DNA of 64,000 bases. It comes from Candidatus Omnitrophota bacterium. Lineage in GTDB: Bacteria > Omnitrophota > Gorgyraeia > Zapsychrales > Fredricksoniimonadaceae. The translations under genes and the position numbers were made by a program. The DNA is taken from NCBI GenBank assembly GCA_013287965.1, contig JABDCU010000001.1:5910-69909 (forward strand), written 5' to 3'. Shown here piece by piece: positions 441 to 53,017 of the stretch. Every line of letters begins with the position of its first letter. The stretch's first letter is position 1. The notes under the pieces are model-generated. The model was not told the DNA's origin and searched no databases. It worked only from the letters and a program-made list of their open reading frames with translations.

Positions 441-700
441 TTACTTACAGCAATTAACATACGCCGTATAACCTGCACTGTTGCAAGTTATCCCTTGCCC
501 GCTCATTTGCACGTCACCGGAAGTGGTGCCGTTTGATACATAGCATGACCACTTGATCATCACCTCACCGGCACTGCAAGACGCACTGCCGGCGCCGCTC
601 CTTATCGTGCAGGTCCAGTTTGTTGGAGTAGAACCCGCGGCATCCACATACCCCTTAGCCGCCGCATCAGTGAACGCCGTGGATGTGGCAAGGTCATTGT
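441..700. repeat. 3'-terminal module (C-terminal Cys-rich domain coding region) shared at about 90 percent nt identity with 1318-1580.
   Basis: Direct nucleotide comparison of the last roughly 260 nt of the peptidase gene with the last roughly 260 nt of the fibre gene. Confidence 0.85.
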
Positions 701-1271: not shown

Positions 1272-1317
1272 ACTATTTATCCCAGAAATTTGTCATTAAA
1301 TGTGTCCGTCACCTTTA

Positions 1318-1580
1318 TTATTTACAACAATTAACATATGCCGTATAAGCCGCGCTGTTGCAAGTTATGCCTTGTCCGCTCATTTGCGCGTCACCGAAAG
1401 TGGTACCGTTGAGTACATAGCATGACCACGTGATCATCACCTCACCGGCACTGCAAGACGCGCTGGTATTGCCACTCCTTATCGTGCAAGTCCAGTTTGT
1501 GGGAGTAGCAGCCGCGGCATCCACATACCCCTTAGTCGCCGCGTCAGTGGACGCCGTGGGTGTGGCAAGGTTAACGATCT
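1318..1580. repeat. 3'-terminal module of the fibre gene. It is the partner of 441-700.
   Basis: See 441-700. Confidence 0.85.
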
Positions 1581-13181: not shown

Positions 13182-14238
13182 GTCTTAGCTGGCCACAGGC
13201 GGCGTTCACGTCTTTGCCTCTCGGCGTGCGGATAGTGGCATGGACACCGCTGTCTTCAAGGCTGTCTCTAAAGGCAGTCATTTCCTTGCCGGTAGGTGTT
13301 TGGTGCCCGAATTCTGAAACAGGATTATAGGGGATAAGGTTCATTTTGCAGATGATCCCTTTAAAAGCTTTTTTCAAACTCGCCACGGCGTGCGGCGTGC
13401 ACGTGACATCCTTAATGAGGATATACTCGAACGTTATCTGCCGGTTGGTTTTGCGGACGTAGTCACGGCAGGCCGCGATCAATTCATCAAACGGGTATTT
13501 TTTATTGACCGGCATGAGCACATCGCGGGAAGGATTATCATACCCGTGCAGGGAAATGGCCAATTCCACCTGCAAGCCCTCTTGGGCCAATTCCCTGATC
13601 TTCGGGACAACTCCGACGGTGGAGATCGTGATATGCCGCGCCCCTATATTAATGCCCTTGTCCGCATTGATGATGCGCACTGCTTTCATCAAATTAATAA
13701 AATTATCCAAAGGCTCCCCCGTTCCCATGAACACGATATTGGTCAACGGCCTCTTATGTTTCAAGGCCTCTTCCTTGACATGCAAAACCTGGGTGACGAT
13801 CTCAGCACAGCTAAGATTTCTCTTCCAGCCGCCGATACCGCTGGCGCAAAACTTGCAGCCGAACTTACAGCCGGCCTGGGTCGAAATACACGCGGTTGTC
13901 CTGGTTGCGGTGGGGATCAGGACACTCTCGATCTTCTCATGGTCATGAAGGTCAAAGAGAAATTTGGTGGTGCCGTCCTCGGAGACCAGCTTTTGGGCGA
14001 TCTCATTGGTTTTAAGGACAAGGTCTTTCTTCAAACGGTCCCTTAATCCTTTAGGGACATTGGTCATCGCGTCAAAACCCCAAGCACCTTTTTGATAGAT
14101 CCACTGGAAGACCTGGTCAGCGCGAAAAGGCTCTGCATCAACAGAGCGCAAGTACGCCGTCAATTCTTCCAAAGACAAATCACGTATATCTGGATGAGGG
14201 GTCACGTTTATGGATTCCCGCTTTCGCGGGAATGACAA
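13168..14238 (-). CDS. rlmN: 23S rRNA (adenine2503-C2)-methyltransferase RlmN (radical SAM). The annotated TTG start lies inside a REP-1 element, so the true start is probably downstream.
   Basis: CKFGCKFCASG radical-SAM CxxxCxxC motif. The RlmN/Cfr family has conserved GTGEP, ISLHG and a C-terminal Cys. The N-terminus MSFPRKRESI is a REP translation. Confidence 0.85.
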   Translation of the reverse strand: MSFPRKRESINVTPHPDIRDLSLEELTAYLRSVDAEPFRADQVFQWIYQKGAWGFDAMTNVPKGLRDRLKKDLVLKTNEIAQKLVSEDGTTKFLFDLHDHEKIESVLIPTATRTTACISTQAGCKFGCKFCASGIGGWKRNLSCAEIVTQVLHVKEEALKHKRPLTNIVFMGTGEPLDNFINLMKAVRIINADKGINIGARHITISTVGVVPKIRELAQEGLQVELAISLHGYDNPSRDVLMPVNKKYPFDELIAACRDYVRKTNRQITFEYILIKDVTCTPHAVASLKKAFKGIICKMNLIPYNPVSEFGHQTPTGKEMTAFRDSLEDSGVHATIRTPRGKDVNAACGQLRHAHQ

Positions 14239-14240
14239 TG
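14211..14240. repeat. REP-1 element copy at the 5' end of rlmN.
   Basis: tggattcccgctttcgcgggaatgacaatg. Confidence 0.85.
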
Positions 14241-22822: not shown

Positions 22823-23575
22823 TTAAAACTCGTACTCGATGACCCATTTCAATTCTCCCCGGGGGGCCGCGTCGGACATGCCGAATAAATAACCGATATC
22901 ATATTTAACATGCCTGTTCAGGCGGCCGTAAAAAACAGGTCCGGCCTGATGGCTTTGCTGATTATAGTCTAACTGATGGGCAACCGCACTAAAATCGTTG
23001 TAATACTCAACACCCGGCTCAAAATAAGGGGAAAGGCGGTATTTAGTGCTCCAGGACATTCCGCCGTCAATATGCGGGTTGGCGCCGCTGCCGCCAATTT
23101 CTTTATTGAAACTAATGTTAAGGATATTGGTGATCTTATCTATGGATTTTTCCAGCAAGATCTTCCCTTCAAATTTCCCCGCCTGTTTATCGATAAGGGG
23201 TGCCTCATAGGCAAGATAAAGTCCCGGGTCCAGCCAATATTCCCCTTTGGGGGCAAGTTGAAAAATATTCTCCCATTCCGTATGGGTTGCTTGGAGCTTT
23301 GTGACGGAACCATCTGTAGGCAATGTTTCCATTTCTACTTCTAATTCCGTTGCCCAATGACTGGTGACCCCATAACCGATCGCATTTTTATACTCTTGTA
23401 CTGCATTTTTATTCTTGGCACGGTCAAGATCATACAGCCCTGTTGTTTCATATTCCCATTCCCCTTGTGTCACATATGGCTCGAACACCCGCTTCTCGGC
23501 GAAGGCAGGATTGCACAAACTAACTATTATTGTCATTCCCGCGACAGCGGGAATCCATAAATATTTATTGAGCAA
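22823..23575 (-). CDS. Putative outer-membrane beta-barrel-like secreted protein. The N-terminus is partly encoded by a REP-1 element.
   Basis: Signal-like N-terminus. Alternating amphipathic strands. The C-terminal ...WVIEYEF has the aromatic terminal residue typical of OMPs. WIPAVAGMT is a REP translation. Confidence 0.5.
   Translation of the reverse strand: MLNKYLWIPAVAGMTIIVSLCNPAFAEKRVFEPYVTQGEWEYETTGLYDLDRAKNKNAVQEYKNAIGYGVTSHWATELEVEMETLPTDGSVTKLQATHTEWENIFQLAPKGEYWLDPGLYLAYEAPLIDKQAGKFEGKILLEKSIDKITNILNISFNKEIGGSGANPHIDGGMSWSTKYRLSPYFEPGVEYYNDFSAVAHQLDYNQQSHQAGPVFYGRLNRHVKYDIGYLFGMSDAAPRGELKWVIEYEF
23529..23557. repeat. REP-1 element copy within the N-terminal coding region of ORF 22823..23575.
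   Basis: ttgtcattcccgcgacagcgggaatccat. Confidence 0.85.
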
Positions 23576-30976: not shown

Positions 30977-31595
30977 CAGATCTTCAATGGCCGTGCTGAC
31001 AGGGATCGCAGGGGTGACTGTCCTATGCGCCATTGTCATCAGGTCCGGTGAGCAGCCCGCCGGCCTGGAACAAAAAAACTATGCCGCGCGTTTTGGCATA
31101 AAATCCCTTAATGTGTTCATGCCCGAAAGCTACGCGCAACTTGCTAATGCCCTCGATGAAAACAGGGCCATCCCTCAAAACTACGGGACTTATTTTAAGG
31201 TGGCGGCTAAATTCATGCCGGATGATTTTGCAAGCCATTACATGCTGGCCCTCTATTACCAAAGCCGCGGCGAATGGGCCGAGGCCCAGGAAGCCTATAA
31301 AAAAAGCCTTGATCTAAATCCCGTCTTTTTCTGGTCTTACTATAATTTAGGGCTGATGCTTTGGGAGAATGACCGCAGGGACATGGCTTTAAGGATATGG
31401 TCGCAGGCGTTGAAGATCCCCCCCGAGGTGACTTTGCAAACATTGGTCTCAACAAAAGTGTTGGGTGATTGCGCGGCGGACCTGGCGTTGCGCGGGCATG
31501 ATATCAACCAGTCCGTCGTCAAGGGATACAGCCAATTGCAGCAGTGGGTCAAAGATAGGCAGGTGCCTCAAAACCCCCCGCTGGTAATGCTTTAA
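30960..31595 (+). CDS. TPR-repeat protein.
   Basis: YMLALYYQSRGEWAEAQEAYKKSLDLNPVFFWSYYNLGLML TPR pattern. Confidence 0.55.
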   Translation: MKALFNRSSMAVLTGIAGVTVLCAIVIRSGEQPAGLEQKNYAARFGIKSLNVFMPESYAQLANALDENRAIPQNYGTYFKVAAKFMPDDFASHYMLALYYQSRGEWAEAQEAYKKSLDLNPVFFWSYYNLGLMLWENDRRDMALRIWSQALKIPPEVTLQTLVSTKVLGDCAADLALRGHDINQSVVKGYSQLQQWVKDRQVPQNPPLVML

Positions 31596-32992
31596 AACTG
31601 AAAATAAATGAACGGCGTTCCGCCCCTACTTCCTAACACATAGATCAACGCAAACATTCCCATATAAACCGCATACCTGAAGATCGGCTGCCAACGGCAA
31701 AAACAATTGGGCCCTGCATCATATTCCTCGACAATATCCAGGCATACGACCGGGATAACCAGGAATAAAAATACGGCCAGTTGGTGGGTCATATCCAAAT
31801 CCCATTTAAACGACGAGAATATCTGTGAAAAGAAATGGATGAATTGCCCGATGGATTTGCTGCGAAAAATAAACCACCCAAGGCAAGTCAGGTGAAAATA
31901 AAGAATAACGCGGATGATCTTGGGCATCCCTAACTTAAAATTTCCGGTAAATTTCGAAAAAACGCGATGAATGACCAGCATCGATCCATGGAACACGCCC
32001 CAGATCACATAGGTCCAATTAGCGCCATGCCACAAGCCTCCTAAAAACATCGTCACCATCAGATTGGCGTAAGTTCTTTTTTCCCCATGACGATTACCGC
32101 CTAAAGAAATGTATAAATAATCCCGCAGCCAGGTTGAGAGGCTGATGTGCCATCGCTGCCAGAAATCACGGGGATTAACGGCAAAATAAGGGGCCCTGAA
32201 ATTCACCATCAGATCAAAACCCATTAAACGGCTGATCCCCCGCGCGATATTGCTATAGCCGGCAAAATCCCCATAGATCTGAAAAGCAAAAGCATAGACC
32301 GCCATGAGCACCTGGGCACCTTGTGGATCAGCTGCGGAAAAAACCGGATCAACCATTTTTGTCAAATTATCCGCTACAAAAACTTTTAAGAAATAGCCTT
32401 TTAAGATCAACCAAAGCCCGGATTTAATGTTGTCCCACGCCAATACCCTCTTTGTTTGCACCTGTACCAACAGGTGCTTGGCCCGTTCAATGGGACCTGC
32501 CACCAATTGAGGGAAAAAGCTCACAAAAAGAGAAAAATCAAGGAAGCGCTGGCAGGCTTTAATTTCCCCCCGGTAAACACTGAGGGCATAGCCAAGTGTT
32601 TGAAAAGTATAAAATGATATCCCTACAGGCACGATGATGCCTAATGTATGCAGGGATGTTTTAAATCCAAAAAAAGACAAAAGATCAGCCGTGCTATTGA
32701 TAAAAAAGTCATAATATTTAAAGAACCCCAAAAGGCCAAGGTTCACGGCAATGCTCACCATGATAAGCGCCCTGCGGGCCCTGCTATCCGTTGTTCTGTT
32801 TAAGCCCATCCCCACTGAATAATCCACCACCGTTGAGATCCATAACAGGAGAAGAAAACGGTAATCCCAAAACCCATAGAACACCCAGCTGGCTATCAAC
32901 AAAAGGACATTTTGCTGACGGTGTTCCAGCTTCAGGTATAAAAGATACACCATGAAAAAAAAGACACCGAATGTCCACGAGTTGAATATCAT
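31592..32992 (-). CDS. MBOAT family membrane-bound O-acyltransferase (AlgI/DltB-like).
   Basis: Conserved MBOAT His region WHISLSTWLRDYLYISLGGNR. Multi-TM. Confidence 0.88.
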   Translation of the reverse strand: MIFNSWTFGVFFFMVYLLYLKLEHRQQNVLLLIASWVFYGFWDYRFLLLLWISTVVDYSVGMGLNRTTDSRARRALIMVSIAVNLGLLGFFKYYDFFINSTADLLSFFGFKTSLHTLGIIVPVGISFYTFQTLGYALSVYRGEIKACQRFLDFSLFVSFFPQLVAGPIERAKHLLVQVQTKRVLAWDNIKSGLWLILKGYFLKVFVADNLTKMVDPVFSAADPQGAQVLMAVYAFAFQIYGDFAGYSNIARGISRLMGFDLMVNFRAPYFAVNPRDFWQRWHISLSTWLRDYLYISLGGNRHGEKRTYANLMVTMFLGGLWHGANWTYVIWGVFHGSMLVIHRVFSKFTGNFKLGMPKIIRVILYFHLTCLGWFIFRSKSIGQFIHFFSQIFSSFKWDLDMTHQLAVFLFLVIPVVCLDIVEEYDAGPNCFCRWQPIFRYAVYMGMFALIYVLGSRGGTPFIYFQF

Positions 32993-34017
32993 GGCCCTTG
33001 TTCTTTCTTCCGGTCCTTATCTTCAAAGAAGGCCAATGCTTTGCTGATAAGAAGATAGTGCCGGACCGCGTACCGGGGCTCTTCTTGTTGATTGGGATGA
33101 ATGGTATCCACAAAGGTCTCTTTGTTCCAATAAGAAGTCAGGTCGGCAAAAAGCGCATTATTCCTGCTTTGAATGATATCCTTAATAGTCTCGTATTCCA
33201 CTCCAAAATCCCCGCTCTGACGCGCTTCCTGCCAAATAAATAAGACCGGGACCCTGTGTTCCTGAAAAATATCCAGCACTTCACGCAGCACAATGAATTT
33301 TTCCTCTCCTGTCGACTTTTCCAATTGAGTCATTTGAATGGCCTTGATATTCCCCCTCATTTTAGAGTTAACATCATTAGGATAGGACAACCATTTTAAA
33401 AACCATTCTGGCAGCAAATGATATAGTCTGAAATTGTACCGGATGAGAGGATCAATGCGTTTTAATGGGATGGGGGTCGAAAGCGCGCATTCTACGGCAG
33501 TGTTATAATTAAAATACCGAAAATAAAAAGAGGCAGGCATGTTCTTTAATACTTCCGGATCAAAAACAATTTGATCGGAATCAGTTTTAAACCTTGGGTC
33601 AAAAGAAAATGTTCCTTCGTTCATGCAGATCACGACCATGTCGGGATGCCAGTTAACGATCTTTGCAGCCTGTGCCAAATAATCGTAAATGGTTGATGCG
33701 ATCTGGGCCATATTCATAAAGGCTACGGGAGCATTAAGCTCGTCTGCAATGCCTTGCATGTATTTAGGAATGTCGTTGTATTGATAAACGGAATTCCCAA
33801 GCAATATGACTAATTTCTTGTTTCCCAACTGCTCTCTGGAAGGAATTTGGGCGAGCTGAAATCCGTAGGAACCAAACTTGATGCCCGGGTACGTCAGAAG
33901 GCTGTAGTTAAAACCATTTTCAACGATGAAACCGCTGGAAATGGTCATAAAAGCGATCGTAAGCGCAGTCCAGAAGATCCTATTTCTTAACCGCTTCTCA
34001 CGATTATCTTCTATCAT
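32989..34017 (-). CDS. Putative periplasmic partner of MBOAT (AlgJ/AlgX/DltD-like SGNH-fold protein). Tentative.
   Basis: N-terminal TM anchor, translationally coupled to MBOAT with a 4-nt overlap. The call is by context and size only. Confidence 0.4.
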   Translation of the reverse strand: MIEDNREKRLRNRIFWTALTIAFMTISSGFIVENGFNYSLLTYPGIKFGSYGFQLAQIPSREQLGNKKLVILLGNSVYQYNDIPKYMQGIADELNAPVAFMNMAQIASTIYDYLAQAAKIVNWHPDMVVICMNEGTFSFDPRFKTDSDQIVFDPEVLKNMPASFYFRYFNYNTAVECALSTPIPLKRIDPLIRYNFRLYHLLPEWFLKWLSYPNDVNSKMRGNIKAIQMTQLEKSTGEEKFIVLREVLDIFQEHRVPVLFIWQEARQSGDFGVEYETIKDIIQSRNNALFADLTSYWNKETFVDTIHPNQQEEPRYAVRHYLLISKALAFFEDKDRKKEQGP

Positions 34018-34163: not shown

Positions 34164-34164
34164 A

Positions 34165-34238
34165 TAGCCCCAACCGGATTTGAACCGGTGTTTTCTGCCT
34201 GAGAAGCAGACGTCCTGACCAGGCTAGACGATGGGGCC
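34165..34238 (-). tRNA. tRNA-Glu (anticodon CTC).
   Basis: Hand-folded cloverleaf. Acceptor GGCCCCA/TGGGGCT. The D arm resembles E. coli tRNA-Glu (TCGTCTAG...CAGGAC). Anticodon stem TCTGC/GCAGA with loop TTCTCAG. T arm CCGGTTCAAATCCGG. Confidence 0.8.
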
Positions 34239-34329
34239 AAATCAATATTGAATGGTAAGGATATCTCAAAGCTCCTTAATCGTCAACAAATATCGTTGAC
34301 TCCTGGCGTCCTGAATTTATAATCGAATT

Positions 34330-35517
34330 ATGCCCACCAGTATCAGCATTGGATTCAGCCAGGACCCCGATCCCCCAAACGCTATTTTACAGGCTTGCGT
34401 GCAGGTCAAAAACCAGCTCAAGGCCGCTGATACTGACCTGGTCATTCTCTTTGCCTCGCCCCAGTATGTCGTCCCTGAAGTCCAGGATGTCATCACCCGC
34501 ACCCTTAAACCAAAACACTTAGTCGGCTCTTCCACCGGCGGCATCATCCTGTCCAACGGGGTGGCCAACCGCGGCATCGCCATCGTAGGCATTAATTCCG
34601 ACGATATGAACTTCGGGGTTTCCGCGATAAAGGACATTGACAACCAGGACATGCATTACACCGGATTTGACCTGGCCCGCAAAGCGGCCCAGGACTTAAA
34701 CTCCTCTCACCGGGAAGCCTTCATCACTTTTTCGCAAGGCCTTGAAAAAAACTCTTCCCCCTTTATCCGCGGCGTCAGGGAAGTATTGGGCGGGGGTTTT
34801 CCCGTGCTCGGGGCCATTTCCAGCGACGATTTTAAATATAAACGGCTCTCTCAATTTTATCAGGACCAAATATTGCATCATTCCGTCGTCGGCCTGCTGC
34901 TGGGCGGGGCATTCCATCTGGCCTTAGGCTGCAGGCACAGCTTTAAACCGTTGGGTAAACCTAGGACCATCACCAGGGTCGAGGGTCATATCATCCGCAC
35001 CATTGATGATAGGCCGGCCGTTGAAATTTATAAGCATTTCTTAGGGACCGAAGCTGAAGGGTTAAAAAATACTGCTTTAAACTCATACGCGGCGATGTAC
35101 CCCTTGGGCTCCTATCTGGAAGAGTCCCGCCAATATTTGCTGCGTAACATCATTGACATCCTGGATGACGGTAGTATCGTATGTCATGAGGGGATCCTTC
35201 AGGGCGCTGAAGTGCATCTGATGATCAGCAATAAAGAGTCTTGCCGCAACTCTGCCGTTGAAGCGGCGGAATCAGTCAAGGCGTCCCTGGCTGACAGGCC
35301 GGCCAAGCTGATACTTATATTTGAATCATTGGCCCGGCACAAGATCCTGGGGCGCAGCGCTTTTAATGAGATCCAGGCCATCAAGAATGTCTTAGGGAAC
35401 AGCACGCCGATCGCAGGCATGTGCTCCTACGGTGAAATAGGGCCCTTTGGCACACTGGACAATATAAAGAACATTTATTTGCATAACGAAAGCATCCTTA
35501 TCATGGCCATTGCATAA
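34330..35517 (+). CDS. FIST (N and C) sensory domain protein.
   Basis: Architecture and C-terminal ...CSYGEIGPFG motif typical of the FIST_C domain. First gene of a 3-gene plus-strand signalling operon. Confidence 0.7.
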   Translation: MPTSISIGFSQDPDPPNAILQACVQVKNQLKAADTDLVILFASPQYVVPEVQDVITRTLKPKHLVGSSTGGIILSNGVANRGIAIVGINSDDMNFGVSAIKDIDNQDMHYTGFDLARKAAQDLNSSHREAFITFSQGLEKNSSPFIRGVREVLGGGFPVLGAISSDDFKYKRLSQFYQDQILHHSVVGLLLGGAFHLALGCRHSFKPLGKPRTITRVEGHIIRTIDDRPAVEIYKHFLGTEAEGLKNTALNSYAAMYPLGSYLEESRQYLLRNIIDILDDGSIVCHEGILQGAEVHLMISNKESCRNSAVEAAESVKASLADRPAKLILIFESLARHKILGRSAFNEIQAIKNVLGNSTPIAGMCSYGEIGPFGTLDNIKNIYLHNESILIMAIA

Positions 35518-35519
35518 AT

Positions 35520-37064
35520 ATGGACCCGACAACCCTTGAAACCATATGGACGCTCGGCATCATCATTTTTATCCTGCTGTGCGCGACGACATATCTTTTT
35601 TATGCTTCTGCCACTAAAGAGGAAACCATCAAGAAAAAGGACGAAGAGCACAATAAACTCATGCGCTCTTTTAATGACCTGGATGAACAAGCCAAAATGA
35701 TCATCCGCACTGACCTGGAGCTCCATAAGGTCCGCGAAGAAACGGACCAGCGCCTCAACGGCTTAAACGCCCTTCAAAGAACGTCGCGGCAAATGAGCCA
35801 GGCGCTTAACGCGAATGAGATCTTCCAGCGGATCTCCCCCGCGCTTTTTGAAGACCTGGCCTTCGCCCGCGTCTTGATCGCCTGCGCGGATGATAAGAAC
35901 ACGTTAAAGGTCCGCCTTAACATAGGTTACACGGATGCCCGTGCCGAGGCCATCTTAAAAGAGATCGCCGCTGAAGAACAGCTCAAGAGCGCCCTGAAAG
36001 AGACCCACTCTGTTTCTTCCATCAATGGGTCCAACAAAACCAAAGAAAAAATGATCCATGCCTTTGAAGCGGAACATTTTATCTTCGCGCCCATCCTGAC
36101 CCAAACCGGAAGCATTGGTTTTGTTTTCGCGGGGAACCGTTACAATGCCCCCGCGGTGACACAAGGTGACGAAGAATTGATCACCATCCTGGCCGGGCAA
36201 ATAGGCCAGTCCATCGAAAACGCGGAACTGTTTGAAAAAGTGTTCCGCTCCAGCCAGGAGTTGGAATTAAAAGTCGCGGACCGTACCAAACAGCTGGCCA
36301 ACGCCTTACAAAAAGTCAACGACATCAGTAATAAAAAATCAGAATTTGTCTCCGCTGTTTCGCATGAGCTGCGCACCCCCTTGACGTCCATCAAAGGTTA
36401 TGCCGCCATCCTGATCGCCGGGAAGATCGGTGAAGTGCCTCCCGCGGTCAAGGAACGCTTGAGCAAGATCAACTCCCACTCCGACCATTTGGTCAGCCTG
36501 ATCAACGATCTCCTGGACCTCGCCCGCATTGAGTCCGGACGGCAGGAGATGAAATTGGCCGCTTACAAAATTAAAAATATCCTCGATAACGTCACGGACC
36601 TGCTGGCCCCCCAGATAGCTGCCAAGGGGGTTAAATTACACTTGCAACTGCCCCCGGAGGTAGAAGAGATCTATGCAGATACCTCCCATGTCGAACGTGT
36701 TCTTATCAATCTATTAAGCAACGCTGTAAAATTCACGCCCGCCAACGGCACCATCACCGTGGCGGTTGCACCGGCACTTGATGGCGGCTATGCCGTCTTT
36801 AGCGTGTCTGACACCGGCATCGGCATCCCCGCCTCAGAGGTAGAAAAACTTTTCAGTGAATTCTTTCGGGGCGAAAATGAGATCAACCAAAATGTCAAAG
36901 GGACAGGCCTGGGGCTGGTCCTGGCTAAAAATATTGTTGAGGCGCACCGTGGTAAAATGTGGGTCCAAAGCAAGGCCGGGGCCGGGACCACCTTTTATTT
37001 TACATTGCCCTCGTCCATGAAAGCTTACGAAGAACACCTGACCCTTGAGAAAACTGATGCGTAA
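35520..37064 (+). CDS. Sensor histidine kinase (TM, GAF-like, HisKA, HATPase_c).
   Basis: H-box FVSAVSHELRTPLTSIKGYA. N, G1 and G2 boxes (NLLSNAVKFT, DTGIGI, GTGLGL). Confidence 0.92.
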   Translation: MDPTTLETIWTLGIIIFILLCATTYLFYASATKEETIKKKDEEHNKLMRSFNDLDEQAKMIIRTDLELHKVREETDQRLNGLNALQRTSRQMSQALNANEIFQRISPALFEDLAFARVLIACADDKNTLKVRLNIGYTDARAEAILKEIAAEEQLKSALKETHSVSSINGSNKTKEKMIHAFEAEHFIFAPILTQTGSIGFVFAGNRYNAPAVTQGDEELITILAGQIGQSIENAELFEKVFRSSQELELKVADRTKQLANALQKVNDISNKKSEFVSAVSHELRTPLTSIKGYAAILIAGKIGEVPPAVKERLSKINSHSDHLVSLINDLLDLARIESGRQEMKLAAYKIKNILDNVTDLLAPQIAAKGVKLHLQLPPEVEEIYADTSHVERVLINLLSNAVKFTPANGTITVAVAPALDGGYAVFSVSDTGIGIPASEVEKLFSEFFRGENEINQNVKGTGLGLVLAKNIVEAHRGKMWVQSKAGAGTTFYFTLPSSMKAYEEHLTLEKTDA

Positions 37065-37986
37065 AGAACGTATCCTCATTATCGACGATGATCCTGATAT
37101 CCGCGATGTGCTTAATTTAAGCCTGGCGGAACATTACAGCATTTCCGCGGCCAATAACGGCAAAGAAGGTCTGGAGATGGTCAAGACCAAAAACCCTGAT
37201 TTGATCATCACTGATTATAATATGCCGGTGATGAACGGCCCGCAATTTGTCCGCCAACTGCGCCATGACATTTTACTGCGCCACCTGCCTGTTATCATGC
37301 TCACCGGCAAAGGCGAAACCAGGGACATGGTCACCGGGATCGAATCCGGAGCGGACGACTATATAGTCAAACCTTTTGAACCGGAGACCCTGCTGGCGCG
37401 CATCCGCATGATCTTAAAACGCACCACCCGCTCGCTGGATGCCAATCCCCTGACCCACCTGCCGGGAAACTCGTCGATCATGGAGGAATTCCAGGCCTAC
37501 ATCGACAACGGCAAACCATTCGCGGTGGGCTATGCGGACCTTGATAAATTCAAGATCTATAATGATAAATATGGTTTCGAACACGGGGACGAGGTGATCC
37601 GTTCTTTGGCCCGTATCCTCATTGATGCCACCCAGCAATTCTGCGGACCAGACGCTTTTGTCGGCCATGTCGGTGGGGATGATTTTGTGTTTATCTGCGC
37701 TGATGACAAGGCCGATGCCGTCAGCCAGAACATCATTGATGCCTTTGATAAAATCTCCCCCAGCTTTTATAACGATGAGGACCGCGCCGCGGGCTTTATC
37801 ATGGGAGTTGACCGGCAAGGCAATAGTGTCAAGGTCAGTTTAGTTTCTGTTTCCATCGGCATTGTCAGCAGTGTCAACCAGAAGATCACCCATGTGGCAC
37901 AGATCGGGGAACTCGGCGCGGAGTTAAAGAAATTCGCCAAGTCGGTGGGGAAAAGTAATTTTCAGAGGGACCAGAGGAAAAAATAA
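37045..37986 (+). CDS. Response regulator with REC domain fused to a GGDEF-type domain carrying a GGDDF variant motif.
   Basis: REC segment LIIDDDPDIRD...DLIITDYNMPVMNG...K. GGDEF-like segment YADLDKFKIYND...HVGGDDFVF. Confidence 0.85.
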   Translation: MRKLMRKERILIIDDDPDIRDVLNLSLAEHYSISAANNGKEGLEMVKTKNPDLIITDYNMPVMNGPQFVRQLRHDILLRHLPVIMLTGKGETRDMVTGIESGADDYIVKPFEPETLLARIRMILKRTTRSLDANPLTHLPGNSSIMEEFQAYIDNGKPFAVGYADLDKFKIYNDKYGFEHGDEVIRSLARILIDATQQFCGPDAFVGHVGGDDFVFICADDKADAVSQNIIDAFDKISPSFYNDEDRAAGFIMGVDRQGNSVKVSLVSVSIGIVSSVNQKITHVAQIGELGAELKKFAKSVGKSNFQRDQRKK

Positions 37987-38005: not shown

Positions 38006-39502
38006 TTAATTCGGAACGCACTGTCCGGACGCGCTGCACTTTGTCCAAGTCGGCTGCCCGGCAGGCGGACAGTTCCCGCCATTGGAACCACAGGCGTTTC
38101 CGCAGCTGTCCTTCCCGCAATCCGCGCTCCAATTGGTTCCGCAAGCCGTATTAGCTTTACATGCACCAGCTTCCCAATGCTGACACGGAAGACAACACAG
38201 ACCGGGCAAGGTAGCAGCGGTGATAGTGGTACCGCTGTTGCTGCCGCTGCTGCATGGTTCTCCGCCAGAACAACCCCCGCTATTGGAACCGCAAGGGGTT
38301 CCATCGCTGTCATAACCGCAATCATTGCTCCCGCAAGGTGTCAAAGGCACACATCGAGATAAAATACCATTCCAAATTTCAGTATCAGGACAACTTGTCA
38401 CACACGTGCCAGGAGGCCCGTTAACGTCACCGGTAGTATTATTACATTTTTCCCCGGTAGGACAGTTCCCATTATTTGCCCCGCAAAAGCCCCCGCAACT
38501 GTCTTGACCGCAGCCATTGGGTGATGGAGAACCATTGGAAGCTATGGGGCAAGCGGGGCTCGCCTTGCAATTTCCCGGCACACATGTGTTCCCCTTCCAA
38601 TAAGTACAGTTATTAGGATCAGTGCTGTCATTGCAATTACACCGGCAAGAGTCATAGCCGGGATCCCCGAGAGTTGTATCACAGAATTGATTGGCCGGGC
38701 ATGAATTTATGTCCTGACATCCGGTCCCGGCGGAATTAACATCAGTACATTTATTACCATCTACCTGGCAATAAGCGCATGAGGACGTGGAACTGTCCCA
38801 ATAGGAATACTTAAAACAAGCGCATTCTTTTTTAGTGTCCGTCTGGGTTGAATCACAAAATCCATTCGTGCATACTGTCGGCACACACTTGGTCCCATCA
38901 AAAGTAGTGCATGGGTCCGGACAATAATTGACACACGCAGGCGGATTAGCGGACTGATCAAAATACCAGCCGGTGGGACATATGCATTGAGTGCATGTTG
39001 GGTCAGTTAAAGATCCCGGGACGGAAGAGCAATCCAGGCCATTGGAACAGCCGCATCCTGATGGATTATCAGTTGCTCTTTGTGCCACGGGAACTGCTCC
39101 GCAAACCTGGCCGGTGATTGGACAAAAGCAGGCATTGACCCCGTTACAGGCTACCTGCCCGCTCCCTGAACAATATGCCCCTCCAAATGCCGGCGCCGGG
39201 CATTCGCAGGAACGGTACATGACCGTAGGACCAAAACTGCCTGAAGCAGGACAAGTGACCGAACACCAGCCGCCGTTTATAGGAGTGATCTGTTTGCCGT
39301 CAATGGTCTCATTGCCATTTCCCATGATGACACGGGTAACGGTATTATAATAACCTTGTGCCGTGTCATGTATTTGGGAAACCAACGAGTTTGGGTTGGA
39401 ACTAAAACTGGCAATGACCGCCACCGCGACCACGGCCAAGAGCAAAAGATACTCCAGCGACGTCTGTCCTCGAATAGGGCTATAGGCAGCGGGCATTCTC
39501 AT
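38006..39502 (-). CDS. Type IV pilin-like (prepilin-type N-terminus) protein with a large, extremely Cys-rich extracellular domain. The ORF-track N-terminus (MCPGF...) is an artefact of the REP-2 hairpin, and the likely start is MRMPAAYSPIRG.
   Basis: RG then QTSLEYLLLLAVVAVAVIASF gives a positively charged leader, Gly, Glu at +5 and a hydrophobic helix, which is the class III / type IV pilin signal. The remaining roughly 460 aa contain dozens of Cys in CxxC / C-x-n-C arrays with G/N/S/T-rich spacers. Confidence 0.65.
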   Translation of the reverse strand: MRMPAAYSPIRGQTSLEYLLLLAVVAVAVIASFSSNPNSLVSQIHDTAQGYYNTVTRVIMGNGNETIDGKQITPINGGWCSVTCPASGSFGPTVMYRSCECPAPAFGGAYCSGSGQVACNGVNACFCPITGQVCGAVPVAQRATDNPSGCGCSNGLDCSSVPGSLTDPTCTQCICPTGWYFDQSANPPACVNYCPDPCTTFDGTKCVPTVCTNGFCDSTQTDTKKECACFKYSYWDSSTSSCAYCQVDGNKCTDVNSAGTGCQDINSCPANQFCDTTLGDPGYDSCRCNCNDSTDPNNCTYWKGNTCVPGNCKASPACPIASNGSPSPNGCGQDSCGGFCGANNGNCPTGEKCNNTTGDVNGPPGTCVTSCPDTEIWNGILSRCVPLTPCGSNDCGYDSDGTPCGSNSGGCSGGEPCSSGSNSGTTITAATLPGLCCLPCQHWEAGACKANTACGTNWSADCGKDSCGNACGSNGGNCPPAGQPTWTKCSASGQCVPN

Positions 39503-39538
39503 AGATAATACAAATATACCATATAATTTCAGGGTTAG

Positions 39539-39607
39539 CAAAAAACCGGGACACATTGAATTAAATTAAATTTTACATGAAACTTTAATTCAATGTGTCC
39601 CGGTTTT
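39539..39607. repeat. REP-2 hairpin element copy C (aaaaaaccgggacacattgaatt...aattcaatgtgtcccggttttt). Terminator-like, lying between rpe and the pilin-like gene.
   Basis: Perfect inverted repeat with roughly 20-bp arms flanked by an A-run and a T-run. The same core aaccgggacacattgac is found at 11983-12046 and 24039-24094. Confidence 0.8.
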
Positions 39608-40312: not shown

Positions 40313-40394
40313 TGCGCGGGGAGGGAATTGAACCCTCACGCCTTACGGCATACGCCCCTCAAACGTACGCGTCTACCAATTCCGCCACCCGCGC
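40313..40394 (-). tRNA. tRNA-Leu (anticodon GAG), type II with long variable arm.
   Basis: Hand-folded. Acceptor GCGCGGG/CCCGCGC. D loop GAATTGGTAGA. Anticodon stem TACGT/GCGTA with loop TTGAGGG. Variable arm TGCCGTAAGGCGT. T arm GAGGGTTCAATTCCCTC. Confidence 0.85.
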
Positions 40395-48223: not shown

Positions 48224-51200
48224 CTATAAACCAAGAAAATTCTTCAAATCCGTCATGGGTTGGATACTGATGATCACCGGTACAAAGCCCGGGGCGTTTT
48301 GCAACTGCGCCAGCATGGCTGGATCAAGGTGAAATTCTATTTCACCTCCATTATTTTGAGTCTGTAAATTCATATTGGAAGGAGTTAGGTCGATACCGCC
48401 TTCACGAGTCTTATATTCAACCTTCCTTTGAATATTCTTTGTCACCATAGCATCATCTGTAATAGGTTTTCCCTCTACAACAATGCCTTGTTGTTTAAAA
48501 ATTTCCGCTACCAATGCATTACGAAAAAAGTTGGTAAATTCTCGCGTATAATCGCCTGCTTCTGACAATCTATGTCCCATTTCTTCCATATAAGACCTGC
48601 CGAAAGATTCTGGGTCTGCCAGTTGACTTCTTTTCATCCCAATCTTCTTTGTTGCTGTATTCCAATAAGCCTGGTACCCTTCCAGCGCATCACCTGTCAA
48701 TTTACTTTTAACAGAAGTGAAAACTTCCATAGGACTAGGTTCTATTTTTTTCCCTAATATTTCTTCCAATTTTTTATCAATAATCTGGCGAAGTTGTAGG
48801 ATTTTAATCTCCGCAGGGGTCAAATCATCTATATTCATATATTGAAAATCTGGTTCCAATACTTCAGAATCAAGGTGAACCCCTAAGCTATGGATTACTA
48901 ACGCGATATTATAGTTCATAAACACCACTTGATAACCCATATTTCTTAAGAGTAACTGTGTATCGGGATCATGGATGGTACGTTGTGTGCCTAAAACAAC
49001 CTTCTTGGGATCCCATCCTTTTTGACTTACAACACTTTCCCATGCATTCTGCCAAGTCTGACGGTTTTTGTATGAAGGAATTCTTGTTACATCTTGATAC
49101 TCCGGTCGAGATCCGTTAACTTTTAAAGCCGCATTAATAACCGCAGTTACAGCCTCAACAGAATCTGTTTGTGCCAACATCAATCCAATTGCTTCAGTGA
49201 CTTTGCCTGCATGAAGAACATTCCGGTCGGGAGAAACAATGATTCCAGGTATATTAATAAAATTATAACTCAATATATTATGATGTGAACGTGCAGTATC
49301 TTGAACCTCTAAACCTTGGACATAAAGCCTATCACTAGTCGTTGAAACTATTTCTCCGCCTTCTGTCGTACTTAATGGATGATAATTGGGATTTAGAATA
49401 AGTGCTTTTTCTGCTAAGCGTCTAACAGATTTTAAAAAATCTGAAGTAGGTTGAGTGAAAATGGTCTCCGAACCTTCTATAAGTTGTTTACGTAAATGTA
49501 CCATATCATAACTCAAAACTTGCACTTGGACTGATTTGCCATCAGCATCATTATAAAATTGTGTTTCGATTTTAGCTTTAGCTTTCCAATTTCTTGATCT
49601 TAATTCAAGCCCTAATCCCGCTCTTAAACAAGCTGCGGACAACATTTTGAGACCTTCTCCCCATCCGCCCGCAGCTTCAGGGGTTTCATTTTTTGTACTG
49701 AATAAAAGTCCTAAAAGTTTATAATCATACCCTGTTCCATTGTCTCGGATACGAACGGATGCAATCCGGTCATCGTGGAATTGAGAAATCTCATTAATAT
49801 CCAGCCATCGGGATTCCTCTTCACCTTTTAATGAAAATTCCACGTTAATCTTCGTGGAGCCTGCGTCTTTAGGCAAATGGTTTTGGACTGCATCCAATAA
49901 AATTCGATCAATCCCCCAAGCGGTTTCACGATAATTAAGAGTCAATCCGGTACTTACATTTTGATTTTCTTTCTCATAATAAATTGATGTTGTTGTTGCC
50001 ACGCCTGCTTTTACTAAAAGAATTCCTACAAGGCCAGATATGAGTACGACCTTTTTCCCTTCTTTAATTGCTTGTTCAGTAAGCGCATCCGGTTTTCCAC
50101 TATAACCCGTTGTCTCCCCCAATATTGCGTCTTCACCATATAAACCTTGAAATGCTTGACGCCATACATTAGCCGCCCGTTCATCCAACTTCCTGTAATA
50201 ATCAAAATATAGACCGTTTTCATAGAACTCCTCCGAAACCTTAAACTTACCGTCCTCCTCTTTCATTATAGATTTCTGTATAAAATGTTTTGCAATTTCA
50301 GGTGTTATATTCTCAAACATTGCTAACTTTACCACTGCCTCTATCGCTGAACGAGGCAGGTTATCACGATCACGATTAAGATCTGAATCATTAAAAAGAT
50401 TATAGTTAAAAAGAGCAGGCCTGTAAGCGATATTGCCGTCCGGAAGACTTATAACGTAATTTCCTTTAACATAAATTTCACTCTTTTCTCCTGAGCGTTT
50501 CCCTACAACTTCTCCCACATTTCCAGTGACCAGTGTTGGTCTATATTCCTGATTTAAAAACAACACCAAGTCTGGCAACCTTTTTGCTTGATTCAAAAAT
50601 TCAGAACTAGGGGAACGGATGATCGTCCTTGAACCTGACATTCCTTGTGTATCACTTACTTGTAATGCAATGTTATATGTGGCGATCTCATTTTGAAAAC
50701 CCTTATTAAGGATTTTTTCTGCTATGATTGGTTTAGCCTGCCAAGAGCGGGATTGAAATTCAACTTGAATACCCCGCTTCATTGCAGCCGCGGTCGCAAT
50801 TTTAAGACCTTCTCCAAATTTTCCTGACTCCTCAGTTGAGCCTTTGGTCGTAAGAAAATATTTCAAATGTTCTACATCATAACCGATACCATCATCCGCT
50901 ATCTCAATCGAATCAACATCCTCTGGTCGAAGAGATTGGACTTCTGGATCCAACAGCCCAATAGTTCTTCCGTTTTTTAAATGAAAGGTTACTTCGGTCT
51001 TGCTTCCTTTTGCATCCGCGGGTTTATGATTTTGGACAAAATCAATTAAAATACGGCGTTCATCCCATTTTTCCAAACCACCGTAATCAAGAGTCATGTC
51101 CGTATCAATTATTTTGACTCCTTGTGCTTTGGGGACGCTTTCAATTCTTTCAGGTTCAATTACCACTTCCTGCTTTACTGAATCATCTACCACCTCTTTG

Positions 51201-53017
51201 TTTTTATTATCTTTTTTACGCCAATTAAAAAGACCCGTACCAATATCCGTCTGATTACCTGTCTGATTTACGTCCGCTGGATTAATAAGAACGCCATCTT
51301 TTAATTCCCGCACAGCCGCATTATGGGCTTCAATCCAGCCCCATGTTGGATTCTGTTTACGATAAAAAACTTCCCGTTGTTCATGTTTCAGAAGCCGTAC
51401 ATTATTTAATTCTTCTTCCAGCCCCACTATAAGCCACTGCCCATTCCAGGGGCCTTCCTGGGATGATTGAAAATTTACTGACTTAGCCCCAAAACCTTCT
51501 TGGGGATTCATTACCCATTTATAAATGGCTTTACCTATACGGTCTTCTTGGGCATGCTGGCTAATTTTCAAAATCACATTCCCATCTTGATCGACATCCT
51601 CATCTACCAAACCTTTCTGCCTTAACTGCTCTACTAAAAATTCAATAATTTCGCTGTTCGAACCTGTGGCGGATAAATGGGCAAAACGCGCAATTAGCCG
51701 TAAAATTCTGTTCAAACGTTGTGCGTTTCTATCATGCGCCATGGACGTTGAAGGTAAATTTTGATCGGCATTATCGATCTTTGTTGTTTCACCTATGCCA
51801 GGATCAACAAAAGTACCCACTACATAGGTTCCATTAGTATCATTTATATTAGGCATGACTCCTGCTGAAGTAACCAGCGGTGTAATGTTTAATTTTTCTA
51901 GTGCTACCCCGCCTGAAAAATACTTTCTGGGAATGGTCTCTTGGGATAATGTGTCCGTATCTTCCTTAATATAATTGAACACGCCCTTCTTAAAAGCCTG
52001 TAAATACCGCCCATAAATTCTTTCTTTTTCTTTTGGATCATCAATATTGACCCCCACAACCTTGTTCTTATTCTCATAAACTTGCTCCAAGATACTGTCC
52101 TTGATCTTTTTCTTGTACCAGGTGGCTAAGATGAGGGAATTGTAAACTTGGCGCAATTTGGCAAAATTCTTGCCTTCGTTGACTTCCTTGGTGAGCTCTG
52201 GGATGACGATTTCTCTAACGATTTGAGAGCCTAAAGTACTCACGTCATTCTGAGGCGTAGCCGAAGAATCTAAAGGTGTCTTAAGATGCGCTGCGCTTCT
52301 TCGCTCGCTCAGGATGACAGAATGCTTTTCTAATGATAAATAATCCTGCTCAAGCATTACCTTTAGCTTTGCTTCCACTACATACGCGGTGCCGGCTTTG
52401 GCGTTTTCGTAAACTACGGCTTTTTCCGGCACTATCCATACCTTGTTAAAAGTATTGACCGGAATATTGGTTGTGCCAAATCTTTTAGACGCCTCTTCAT
52501 AAATACGCTTCCAGAATTTCTTGCCAATCTCATCCTCAGGATAAATCAAACTCGCTGTTATTTGTTTGAGCATGTAGTCTTCGGCAAGCAGGTCTCGGCC
52601 CATTTCAGTAAGACCAAAACTTTGAGGAATGATCCTATCCTTCTCGTAAGGGCTCAGGTTGACCCAAAGGTCTTTTTCAGGGATGGTTAGGCTGGCTAGG
52701 AAGTATTTGATTAATTTCGTGGATTCTATTTTAAGTTGTTCTTGGTTCTGGATTCCCGCTTTCGCGGGAATGACAGGGTTAGAATCGCCTTGGTCTAATA
52801 TGAAATCAAAACGGAAAGGATTGTCAGGATGGACTTTGATCCCTTTCAGCATTGGAGGATTAAGCGGTGGGCTTAGATGGACCATGACCCCGGGCGCAGG
52901 CAATCGAAAATCTTGGGCTTGAACTAAAGGAACATTAAAACCAGTAACAGTAAAACATACCGTTACCAGTAAGCTGATCATCCTGCGCCAATTTAAAAAA
53001 TGAACAGGGGCTCCCAT
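48224..53017 (-). CDS. Giant (1597 aa) signal-peptide-bearing protein with two tandem GHKL (HATPase_c_3 / MORC-Hsp90-like) ATPase-like domains. Function unknown. It contains an in-frame REP-1 insertion (VIPAKAGIQ).
   Basis: Signal peptide MISLLVTVCFTVTGFNVPLVQAQ. Two copies of the N-box (DFVQNHKPADA, DAVQNHLPKDA), G1 (ADDGIGYD, RDNGTGYD) and G2 (GKFGEGLK, GGWGEGLK) are present. No HisKA H-box was recognised. Confidence 0.7.
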   Translation of the reverse strand: MGAPVHFLNWRRMISLLVTVCFTVTGFNVPLVQAQDFRLPAPGVMVHLSPPLNPPMLKGIKVHPDNPFRFDFILDQGDSNPVIPAKAGIQNQEQLKIESTKLIKYFLASLTIPEKDLWVNLSPYEKDRIIPQSFGLTEMGRDLLAEDYMLKQITASLIYPEDEIGKKFWKRIYEEASKRFGTTNIPVNTFNKVWIVPEKAVVYENAKAGTAYVVEAKLKVMLEQDYLSLEKHSVILSERRSAAHLKTPLDSSATPQNDVSTLGSQIVREIVIPELTKEVNEGKNFAKLRQVYNSLILATWYKKKIKDSILEQVYENKNKVVGVNIDDPKEKERIYGRYLQAFKKGVFNYIKEDTDTLSQETIPRKYFSGGVALEKLNITPLVTSAGVMPNINDTNGTYVVGTFVDPGIGETTKIDNADQNLPSTSMAHDRNAQRLNRILRLIARFAHLSATGSNSEIIEFLVEQLRQKGLVDEDVDQDGNVILKISQHAQEDRIGKAIYKWVMNPQEGFGAKSVNFQSSQEGPWNGQWLIVGLEEELNNVRLLKHEQREVFYRKQNPTWGWIEAHNAAVRELKDGVLINPADVNQTGNQTDIGTGLFNWRKKDNKNKEVVDDSVKQEVVIEPERIESVPKAQGVKIIDTDMTLDYGGLEKWDERRILIDFVQNHKPADAKGSKTEVTFHLKNGRTIGLLDPEVQSLRPEDVDSIEIADDGIGYDVEHLKYFLTTKGSTEESGKFGEGLKIATAAAMKRGIQVEFQSRSWQAKPIIAEKILNKGFQNEIATYNIALQVSDTQGMSGSRTIIRSPSSEFLNQAKRLPDLVLFLNQEYRPTLVTGNVGEVVGKRSGEKSEIYVKGNYVISLPDGNIAYRPALFNYNLFNDSDLNRDRDNLPRSAIEAVVKLAMFENITPEIAKHFIQKSIMKEEDGKFKVSEEFYENGLYFDYYRKLDERAANVWRQAFQGLYGEDAILGETTGYSGKPDALTEQAIKEGKKVVLISGLVGILLVKAGVATTTSIYYEKENQNVSTGLTLNYRETAWGIDRILLDAVQNHLPKDAGSTKINVEFSLKGEEESRWLDINEISQFHDDRIASVRIRDNGTGYDYKLLGLLFSTKNETPEAAGGWGEGLKMLSAACLRAGLGLELRSRNWKAKAKIETQFYNDADGKSVQVQVLSYDMVHLRKQLIEGSETIFTQPTSDFLKSVRRLAEKALILNPNYHPLSTTEGGEIVSTTSDRLYVQGLEVQDTARSHHNILSYNFINIPGIIVSPDRNVLHAGKVTEAIGLMLAQTDSVEAVTAVINAALKVNGSRPEYQDVTRIPSYKNRQTWQNAWESVVSQKGWDPKKVVLGTQRTIHDPDTQLLLRNMGYQVVFMNYNIALVIHSLGVHLDSEVLEPDFQYMNIDDLTPAEIKILQLRQIIDKKLEEILGKKIEPSPMEVFTSVKSKLTGDALEGYQAYWNTATKKIGMKRSQLADPESFGRSYMEEMGHRLSEAGDYTREFTNFFRNALVAEIFKQQGIVVEGKPITDDAMVTKNIQRKVEYKTREGGIDLTPSNMNLQTQNNGGEIEFHLDPAMLAQLQNAPGFVPVIISIQPMTDLKNFLGL
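52749..52778. repeat. REP-1 element copy inside the GHKL giant gene.
   Basis: tggattcccgctttcgcgggaatgacaggg. Confidence 0.85.

Follow-up and report, generated by a model that had tools for sequence, protein, structure and literature searches.

The gene described here lies on the minus strand of a 64-kb stretch of DNA from an uncultured Omnitrophota bacterium, and this whole stretch is called the window below. Its product is a pilin-like protein in which a short N-terminal pilin module is followed by a long cysteine-rich extension. On one side the gene is preceded by carA, carB, purF, pyrG and rpe, and on the other side it faces a convergent operon encoding a FIST protein, a histidine kinase and a response regulator. 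The coordinates are collected in Table 1.

The minus-strand open reading frame (ORF) 38006..39556 is real, and translation from its first ATG gives 516 aa. The start was moved to the ATG at 39502 because three kinds of evidence agree on it. First, the ATG at 39556 is located inside an intrinsic-terminator-like hairpin. This hairpin has a 17-bp stem with a stability of –24.1 kcal/mol (z = –6.63), and none of 200 shuffled sequences was equally stable; its simplest interpretation is that it terminates the carA-carB-purF-pyrG-rpe unit. Second, a sigma-70-like site with a putative promoter function ends 11 nt 5' of the new start codon; the leader would then be very short. Third, the N-termini of the homologues align at an MR(M/I).. 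position equivalent to the ATG at 39502. The true start is most likely this ATG, with a product of 498 aa, and both the ORF and the start correction made in an earlier sequence-only reading of this DNA can be retained. Two side observations concern rpe. The gene for tRNA-Leu(gag) at 40313-40394 (minus strand) overlaps the GTG given as the start of the rpe ORF, and therefore rpe really begins near 40300 (MKKPIEV...). The terminator arm AATGTGTCCCGGTTTTTT (39533-39562) has an 87% complementary copy 27 kb off at 12022-12051, which suggests that a terminator-like element is reused at these two places.

Table 1. Coordinates of the features discussed (window positions unless another contig is named).
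Feature	Position	Strand	Remarks
FIST_N + FIST_C protein, first gene of the signalling operon	34330..35517	(+)	Pfam
Histidine kinase	35520..37064	(+)	One N-terminal transmembrane (TM) helix, GAF, HisKA, HATPase (Pfam); essentially no periplasmic domain
Response regulator, REC + GGDEF-family domain with GGDDF	37045..37986	(+)	Pfam REC, GGDEF (model positions 5-117 of 161)
Modular pilin-like protein, corrected coding sequence	38006..39502	(-)	498 aa + stop; stop codon 38006-38008
Variable C-terminal region, aa 312-498	38009..38569	(-)	Three ~55-aa repeats C..CG.D.CG..CG.N.G.C...G..C (CGxDxCGxxCG)
Disulfide-ladder region, aa 120-310	38573..39145	(-)	Near-invariant Cys; predicted rod of small beta-hairpin modules
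Divergent thrombospondin type-1 repeat (TSR)-like unit, aa 76-119	39146..39277	(-)	C80, C84, C99, C101, C111, C119; PINGGW
Pilin module, aa 13-72	39287..39466	(-)	QTSLEY + hydrophobic alpha-1N helix + conserved amphipathic helix AQGYYNTVTRVIMG
Leader peptide MRMPAAYSPIRG, 12 aa, ending in Gly –1	39467..39502	(-)	Variable leader, conserved (R)G; PF04021; predicted cleavage
Sigma-70-like promoter candidate TTGCTA-N17-(TG)TATATT	39513..39541	(-)	Consensus scan only
Intrinsic-terminator-like hairpin + U-run, after the rpe stop codon	39549..39600	(-)	Contains the spurious ATG 39556 in its 3' arm
Dispersed palindrome, seven sites	12517-12546, 12819-12852, 14207-14239, 23531-23564, 52746-52775, ~54786, ~55592	both	Partly within ORFs
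L026 cluster, Omnitrophota metagenome-assembled genome (MAG) ND2_Bin_17	553-8683 (own contig)	(-)	PilB/GspE-type ATPase with MshEN, T2SSB-like protein, secretin, then TraC/VirB4-like ATPase

Prepilin signal and cysteine-rich extension

The N-terminus reads MRMPAAYSPIRG↓QTSLEY, where the arrow marks the predicted cleavage site, and this is the prepilin motif of Flp and archaeal pilins. The sole Pfam match of the protein is Class_IIIsignal (PF04021), with 24.7 bits against a gathering cut-off of 23.7, and the NCBIfam search of the protein gave no match. Conservation was counted in an alignment of 42 of the 50 relatives found, 38 of which match PF04021 at E <= 0.01. The residues G–1 (G12), Q+1 (Q13), E+5 (E17) and Y+6 (Y18) are at least 90% conserved there and the 11 preceding leader residues vary. 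A variable leader beside a conserved motif is in keeping with processing and assembly and does not fit a Sec signal. The motif G↓QT(S/A)(L/I)EY satisfies the archaeal QxSxExxxL rule (QTSLEYLLL in the window protein) as well as the Flp G↓xxxxEY rule, and Gln at +1 is shared with archaeal EppA-type pilins. Y51, Y52 and N53 are further conserved residues of the module. In the AlphaFold2 (AF2) model built on the family alignment, helices span residues 15-32 and 40-59, and only short beta-hairpins lie beyond them. Cleavage by a prepilin peptidase would occur after Gly12. The prepilin-type signal claimed in the sequence-only reading is thus borne out by the PF04021 score and by the conserved motif, and its type can now be specified as Flp/archaeal (G↓QTxxEY) rather than type IVa.

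The module shares its short basic leader, the Gly, the xTxxEY motif and the hydrophobic helix with the Flp pilins of Tad systems (Aggregatibacter Flp1, Caulobacter PilA; PF04964) and with archaeal Epd-type pilins (PF04021). Two relatives carry the JGI label 'Flp pilus assembly pilin Flp'. The Flp size of ~50-60 aa is matched only by orthologues at the same locus (55-83 aa mature), not by the window protein with its 486 mature residues.

The 419-aa extension holds 60 Cys residues (12% of the mature protein), and none occurs before residue 80. For comparison, the 38 other window genes have 1.0% Cys on average and 3.3% at most. Dense CxxC and CxnC arrays had been pictured in the sequence-only reading, with a disulfide-knot-like or metal-binding ectodomain as the two options. 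The cysteine richness is correct. The metal-like look is overstated, as the protein has only three CxxC motifs and only two His residues. The number of Cys is even in 35 of the 42 relatives (range 32-130 Cys; binomial p = 1.5e-5), and the odd count of one of the others, P0003, arises because a miscalled N-terminal extension adds one Cys. In addition, loss of C84 is always coupled with loss of a second Cys near C119, where V.C is changed to V.F or V.T. Column-wise covariation of Cys was confounded in the C-terminus by the presence or absence of whole modules, and only the result from the TSR region was used. Parity and paired loss argue for a disulfide-bonded ectodomain rather than for metal sites. 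Of the two options, therefore, the disulfides stand and metal is unlikely.

The first cysteine module seems to be related to the TSR. When a profile of residues 73-135 was compared with all PDB sequences, 16 matches at E <= 10 were obtained, and all of them are TSR proteins, including thrombospondin-1 (the best, E = 0.0022), ADAMTS13, properdin and UNC5D. The pattern common to the unit and the PDB TSRs is PINGGW...C..TC...C..P.P.FGG..C. Foldseek with the full model gave local TSR matches at a probability of 0.85-0.93 and 32-35% identity, and no globally significant match. The paired loss linked to C84 is consistent with the canonical C2-C6 bond of TSRs, and the six Cys would pair into three disulfides. 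The six-Cys pattern, the TSR-only PDB matches and this C2-C6-type loss make the unit similar to the modules of PF00090 (thrombospondin-1, properdin, UNC5, ADAMTS13). On the other hand, TSP_1 (PF00090) of Pfam was not matched by the window protein even at E <= 1. The WxxW tryptophan ladder is missing, W79 being the sole Trp, and VMYRS stands in place of the RxRxR that forms the RxR layer; besides, the unit is bacterial and fused to a pilin. It appears to be a divergent TSR-like unit, not a canonical member.

Clearer cases are found among the relatives. A syntenic orthologue (L028, 9959-12760, plus strand) matches Pfam TSP_1 with 27.7 vs 21.6 bits and HRM, the hormone receptor domain, with 38.1 vs 26.2 bits, and P0037 carries the canonical TSR repeat WSESAWGTCSVTCGGG. 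In P0054 (108 aa) the whole extension of the pilin module is exactly one six-Cys TSR-like unit. This syntenic protein (L036, 10001-10327) is the minimal form of the graft, and the 3' end of its gene overlaps the regulator gene. Pfam and NCBIfam searches of the window protein and the 42 relatives gave no known Cys-rich family, and Class_IIIsignal alone was matched. In the sequence-only reading, a known Cys-rich domain family behind a conventional signal peptide was named as the finding that would speak against a pilin. In part this is the case, with the TSR-like unit here and with TSP_1 and HRM in syntenic orthologues. Since it comes without a conventional signal peptide, the pilin reading survives.

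The TSR-like unit is followed by the disulfide-ladder region. The Cys residues up to C307 are kept in at least 37 of the 42 relatives, save the lineage-specific C290 and C299. The AF2 sub-model of this middle region has a predicted local distance difference test score (pLDDT) of 82 and a predicted template modelling score (pTM) of 0.59, and the full AF2 model, which resembles beads on a string, has a pLDDT of ~65-88 over most of the Cys-rich region. The best Foldseek matches of the middle region are ectodomains of the tumour necrosis factor receptor (TNFR) superfamily, RANK and CD40, which are not significant (E ~0.015, template modelling score 0.23-0.27, root mean square deviation 9-10 Å). 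Judged from the models, the likeness to TNFR and epidermal growth factor (EGF)-like modules is one of architecture only.

The C-terminal region is built differently from one homologue to another, in both the number and the kind of modules. Its identity is 35-55%, or too low to be detected, even in loci whose pyrG reaches 90-95%. In the window protein its repeats are clear, as the repeat pairs score z = 5.5-7.4 and none of 200 shuffles scored as high. Overall, the ectodomain is supported as a disulfide-rich, modular region of extracellular type. Variation by a diversity-generating retroelement or by cassettes was considered separately and rejected; no DNA repeat elsewhere in the window matches the gene, and the only repeat that touches this region is the terminator-like inverted repeat 39533-39562/12022-12051.

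The conserved slot and its signalling operon

A search of 5.8 billion proteins gave 50 homologues at E <= 1e-3. About 40 of them share the conserved N-terminus, and all of these are from Omnitrophota. When 1.84 billion representatives were searched exhaustively with the 72-aa pilin module, 72 clusters with lengths of 43-1642 aa were obtained; a word-indexed search with the same module returned 4 proteins only, as against these 72 representatives. The family is small and restricted to one lineage, with a constant pilin module and a variable graft. As a side observation, P0068 (1642 aa, genomic context unchecked) ends in at least eight tandem ~75-aa repeats (..CCAANYDWNGT.C..).

The position of the gene is conserved as well. 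Five independent contigs, whose relatives are 36-56% identical, keep one gene order, REC-carA-carB-purF-pyrG-rpe-pilin and then the convergent genes for the REC-GGDEF-family protein, the kinase and FIST. Scanning one genome per species gave 27 loci, all in Omnitrophota MAGs, some of which were labelled 'uncultured Planctomycetales' by their submitters. In each of the syntenic loci retrieved (~27/29), the slot between rpe and the convergent REC-GGDDF gene is occupied by exactly one pilin with a class III signal. The loci that match only in the N-terminal 50 residues have the same slot, with proteins of 75, 80, 91, 95 and 157 aa, or of 933 and 1366 aa. The mature lengths of the slot pilins run over 55, 61, 73, 83, 97, 144, 204 and 336 up to 1355 aa, and the syntenic orthologues of 75-95 aa are the pilin module alone. 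The long pilin and the short Flp-like pilins at the slot are orthologous. What seems new here is one conserved slot in which a pilin spans 55 to ~1355 mature residues.

Identities to the window differ strongly within the block. They amount to 75-95% for pyrG, 48-90% for rpe, 60-89% for the response regulator, 50-80% for the histidine kinase and 38-83% for FIST. For residues 1-135 of the pilin they are 34-70%, and the pilin ectodomain is 32-55% identical or undetectable. By these values the ectodomain is the fastest-evolving part of the block.

The positions of the kinase and FIST genes are conserved in the loci examined. In all 28 regulator copies (27 fetched loci and the window, with some contigs fetched twice), GGDDF is found instead of GGDEF or GGEEF. 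Because of this signature, 'c-di-GMP-type' (cyclic di-GMP) or diguanylate cyclase is a family assignment only, with a putative activity. Of the convergent 'c-di-GMP-type' operon proposed at 34330-37986 in the sequence-only reading, the operon is confirmed by Pfam and the c-di-GMP label stands for the family, not for an activity. The pairing of pilin and signalling operon is no chance arrangement, as it recurs in all the syntenic loci retrieved, which come from many species of Omnitrophota. That the genes have stayed adjacent over deep divergence would agree with a functional link. The genes are convergent and so are not co-transcribed, and because carAB-purF-pyrG-rpe is conserved on the other side, the adjacency would also agree with plain synteny of the block. 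Beyond the FIST gene, tRNA-Glu(ctc) at 34164-34239 (minus strand) separates it from two overlapping genes at 31592-34017 (minus strand), one for an MBOAT O-acyltransferase and the other for its membrane-anchored partner of 342 aa, for which Pfam gave no match. This pair is not conserved at the slot in other genomes.

Filament subunit or receptor

In the sequence-only reading, a pilin anchor with a large ectodomain was called an unusual combination. It is less so, because modular pilins with grafted modules occur widely, with over 1,200 proteins in 264 architectures that are probably exposed at the tip (PMC8179133). Examples are Streptococcus sanguinis PilB (vWA) and PilC (lectin), and CofB of enterotoxigenic Escherichia coli (PMC8179133); their bulky grafts are presumed to serve in adhesion. 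The window protein follows the plan of the modular type IV pilins (Raynaud et al. 2021), as a small pilin module at aa 13-72 carries a graft at aa 76-498 and orthologues occur with and without the graft. Unlike the pilins of that survey (IPR012902, type IVa/b; PMC8179133), it has the Flp/archaeal motif, and its TSR-like, TNFR/EGF-like and CGxDxCG modules are not among the 15 commonest architectures described there. Domain surveys keyed to N-methylation are expected to miss modular pilins of the Flp/archaeal type. Among the papers listed for thrombospondin type 1 together with pilin, none contained the thrombospondin term.

We regard it as moderately probable that the protein is a modular Flp-type (class III signal) pilin with a disulfide-rich rod, most likely a low-abundance or tip-located adhesin of a type IV filament. 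The precursor would enter the inner membrane, and a prepilin peptidase of the A24 family would cut it behind Gly12; the gene of this enzyme would lie elsewhere in the genome. The ectodomain would be oxidised in the periplasm, and the subunit would be taken up via its alpha-1N helix, with Glu+5, by a type IV filament machine of the Tad-like or PilB/secretin type. Because the extension is bulky, the subunit would be placed in low abundance or at the tip, and its rigid, fast-evolving stalk would act as an adhesin for the surface of a host cell, a prey cell or a particle. Cleavage by the peptidase, filament incorporation, tip position, adhesion and its target are what we infer here. By analogy with known pairs of pilin and kinase, the adjacent single-pass kinase and the REC-GGDDF regulator may monitor or control the pilin.

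Two known systems are close to this proposal in part. The tips KilL/M/N of the Tad-like Kil system of Myxococcus xanthus have large variable distal domains with many predicted disulfides and a proposed function in prey recognition, and some Kil tip loci are encoded away from the core machine (PMC12075869). They differ in being TadE/F/G-like heterotrimers with beta-stranded pilin domains encoded by three-gene clusters, whereas the window has a single gene, a helix-only Flp-like module and unrelated distal domains. The substrate-binding proteins of the Sulfolobus bindosome also display large ectodomains on a class III signal, and their export and anchoring are carried out by a dedicated type IV-like assembly system (PMC3047682). 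Bindosome proteins are, however, not in pili; they are archaeal solute-binding proteins encoded beside ABC transporters, and the window locus is without transporter or Bas-like genes.

A filament machine is seen close to one relative. Locus L026 carries a non-syntenic paralogue that shares the N-terminus and the TSR-like motif of the window protein. At a distance of 4-9 kb from it are a T2SSE/PilB-type ATPase (332 bits), a secretin (116 bits) and a T2SSB-like protein, and the whole cluster sits just upstream of this TSR-bearing pilin. The ATPase contains an MshEN domain, which is known to bind c-di-GMP in other systems. Tad complexes are reported in most Velamenicoccia and type IVa pilus genes in other Omnitrophota classes (PMC10066038), and secretion and pilus genes are reported to recur in Omnitrophota genomes (bioRxiv 10.64898/2026.06.07.730766).

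Several points weigh against a filament subunit. As had already been noticed from the sequence, the window has no pilus assembly genes; none of its 38 ORFs of at least 150 aa matches a pilus-assembly family in Pfam, and the 10 kb beyond its right end contain no pilus genes. An A24 peptidase was found neither in the window nor in any fetched locus. Within 10 kb of the slot no syntenic locus has an ATPase, a platform protein or a secretin, nor a tad/cpa locus, and a tblastn search with the PilB-type ATPase and the secretin of L026 against 38 sequences (583 kb) found only the source locus. The link from the pilin to a filament machine is drawn through one paralogue and the literature. In contrast to Flp/Tad pilins, the window protein has a 420-aa Cys-rich extension and no tadV, rcp or tad genes alongside. 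Flp_Fap (PF04964) of Pfam is not matched by it, and the best scores among relatives and syntenic orthologues are 13-17 bits (E = 0.005-0.09) against a cut-off of 32.2. N_methyl (IPR012902) gave no match in the window protein at E <= 1 either, and +1 is Gln, not Phe or Met. A ~45-kDa extension on a Flp-type helix is without solved precedent, and its passage through a secretin is hypothetical. Finally, if the short orthologues at the slot are major pilins, a minor or tip role of the long forms is an extra assumption.

The strongest alternative is a signal receptor, which we consider possible but rather unlikely. According to it, the processed protein stays in the inner membrane or in a short pseudopilus, where its helix contacts the adjacent kinase, and ligand binding or contact of the ectodomain, or the size of the pilin pool, sets the REC-GGDDF output. 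Pilin and operon remain adjacent even in loci whose pilin N-termini have identities of only 34-46%, the kinase has a single N-terminal TM helix and no periplasmic sensor domain, and pilus genes never adjoin the slot. There are also precedents: in Caulobacter, PleC-PleD and c-di-GMP synthesis are activated by the TM helix of PilA (PMC7196804), and Pseudomonas PilS-PilR controls the expression of the major pilin PilA (PMC6058289). Both, like the window, combine a pilin with a membrane kinase plus a response regulator, and the Caulobacter output is a REC-GGDEF enzyme. The window differs from them in that the pairing is known from gene adjacency alone, and in its one-TM kinase with GAF, the extra FIST protein and GGDDF. 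Against the receptor are the convergent orientation without co-transcription, the putative nature of the GGDDF activity, and the conserved carAB-purF-pyrG-rpe, since the linkage may in part reflect synteny within a single phylum. Glu+5, which is conserved, and the short Flp-like orthologues favour filament assembly. A receptor role and a filament pilin are compatible and not mutually exclusive.

A bolder version is unlikely in our view. In it, Omnitrophota would possess a contact-sensing cassette in which a Flp-like pilin with a swappable and expandable ectodomain of 0 to ~1350 aa, made of extracellular modules of eukaryote type (TSR, HRM, TNFR-like), is the recognition arm, and its TM helix signals to the kinase and the REC-GGDDF regulator by contact within the membrane. 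If true, a receptor built from a pilin, and not just an adhesin on a pilus, would link the recognition of hosts, prey or surfaces directly to a nucleotide second messenger. Only then would a new principle be involved.

It is improbable that the long form is the major subunit, polymerising along the whole filament into a bottle-brush fibre coated with Cys-rich rods. The single class III ORF per locus, its orthology with 55-83-aa pilins, its own strong promoter-like site and the lack of a second pilin in the 583 kb examined would suit such a fibre. However, a 420-aa extension on each subunit would be sterically hard to accommodate in a helical Flp filament that crosses an outer-membrane secretin, and a separate short pilin elsewhere is quite possible, as ~20 kb per genome were examined. 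The extreme variability of the extension also suits a specialised adhesin better than a structural subunit.

Even less is to be said for an ordinary secreted or membrane-anchored Cys-rich adhesin with a Sec signal or anchor at its N-terminus, in which the likeness to a prepilin is incidental. A hydrophobic stretch behind a positive n-region could engage Sec, no peptidase is found nearby, and conventional secreted proteins typically have modules of the TSR, HRM and TNFR-like kinds. However, the motif RGQT(S/A)(L/I)EY at the n/h boundary is kept where leaders and ectodomains have diverged, which is not expected of Sec signals, and PF04021 scores above its cut-off. Moreover, the module alone makes up 75-aa proteins, which would be functionless as bare signal peptides. 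The weakest alternative, a metallothionein-like or cluster-binding metal or redox protein shown on a pilin anchor, is hardly credible and was rejected, since the 12% Cys with some CxC and CxxC spacings is outweighed by the even Cys counts, the paired losses, the scarce His and CxxC, the probable homology of the first module to a disulfide-bonded TSR and the ordered beta-hairpin modules that AF2 gives without metal.

Omnitrophota are uncultured, mostly ultra-small bacteria that are suspected predators or parasites. The slot pilin is a concrete, phylum-wide candidate for the recognition of partner cells and attachment to them, with fast evolution as expected of a recognition surface. If read correctly as a modular pilin, it carries the 'modular pilin' principle over to pilins of the Flp/archaeal type and indicates that thrombospondin-type and hormone-receptor-type modules are used by bacteria on a pilin. 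It also offers a testable pairing of a pilin with a two-component system of GGDDF output.

Other features of the window

At 1318-9357 (minus strand) there is an ORF of 2679 aa, rich in Gly, Thr, Ser and Asn, with no Pfam match and with a TM or signal-like segment near residue 65. It is built of dozens of degenerate DNA repeats of 48-300 nt and has the look of the 'giant' proteins of Omnitrophota. Its 3' end (1318-1571) recurs with 88% identity at 441-694, and a further repeat copy lies at the start of the window (3-302).

A low-GC island at 48224-53017 (minus strand), with 39-40% against ~50% elsewhere, coincides with an ORF of 1597 aa. This ORF has a signal-like N-terminus, and its HATPase_c matches are weak and sub-threshold; the island and the ORF may have been acquired horizontally. 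A dispersed palindrome of ~30 nt, GGATTCCCGC(N4-6)GCGGGAATGACA, occurs at the sites of Table 1 and is translated as ..IPAKAGIQ.. in the 1597-aa ORF. It resembles a repetitive extragenic palindromic (REP)-like repeat.

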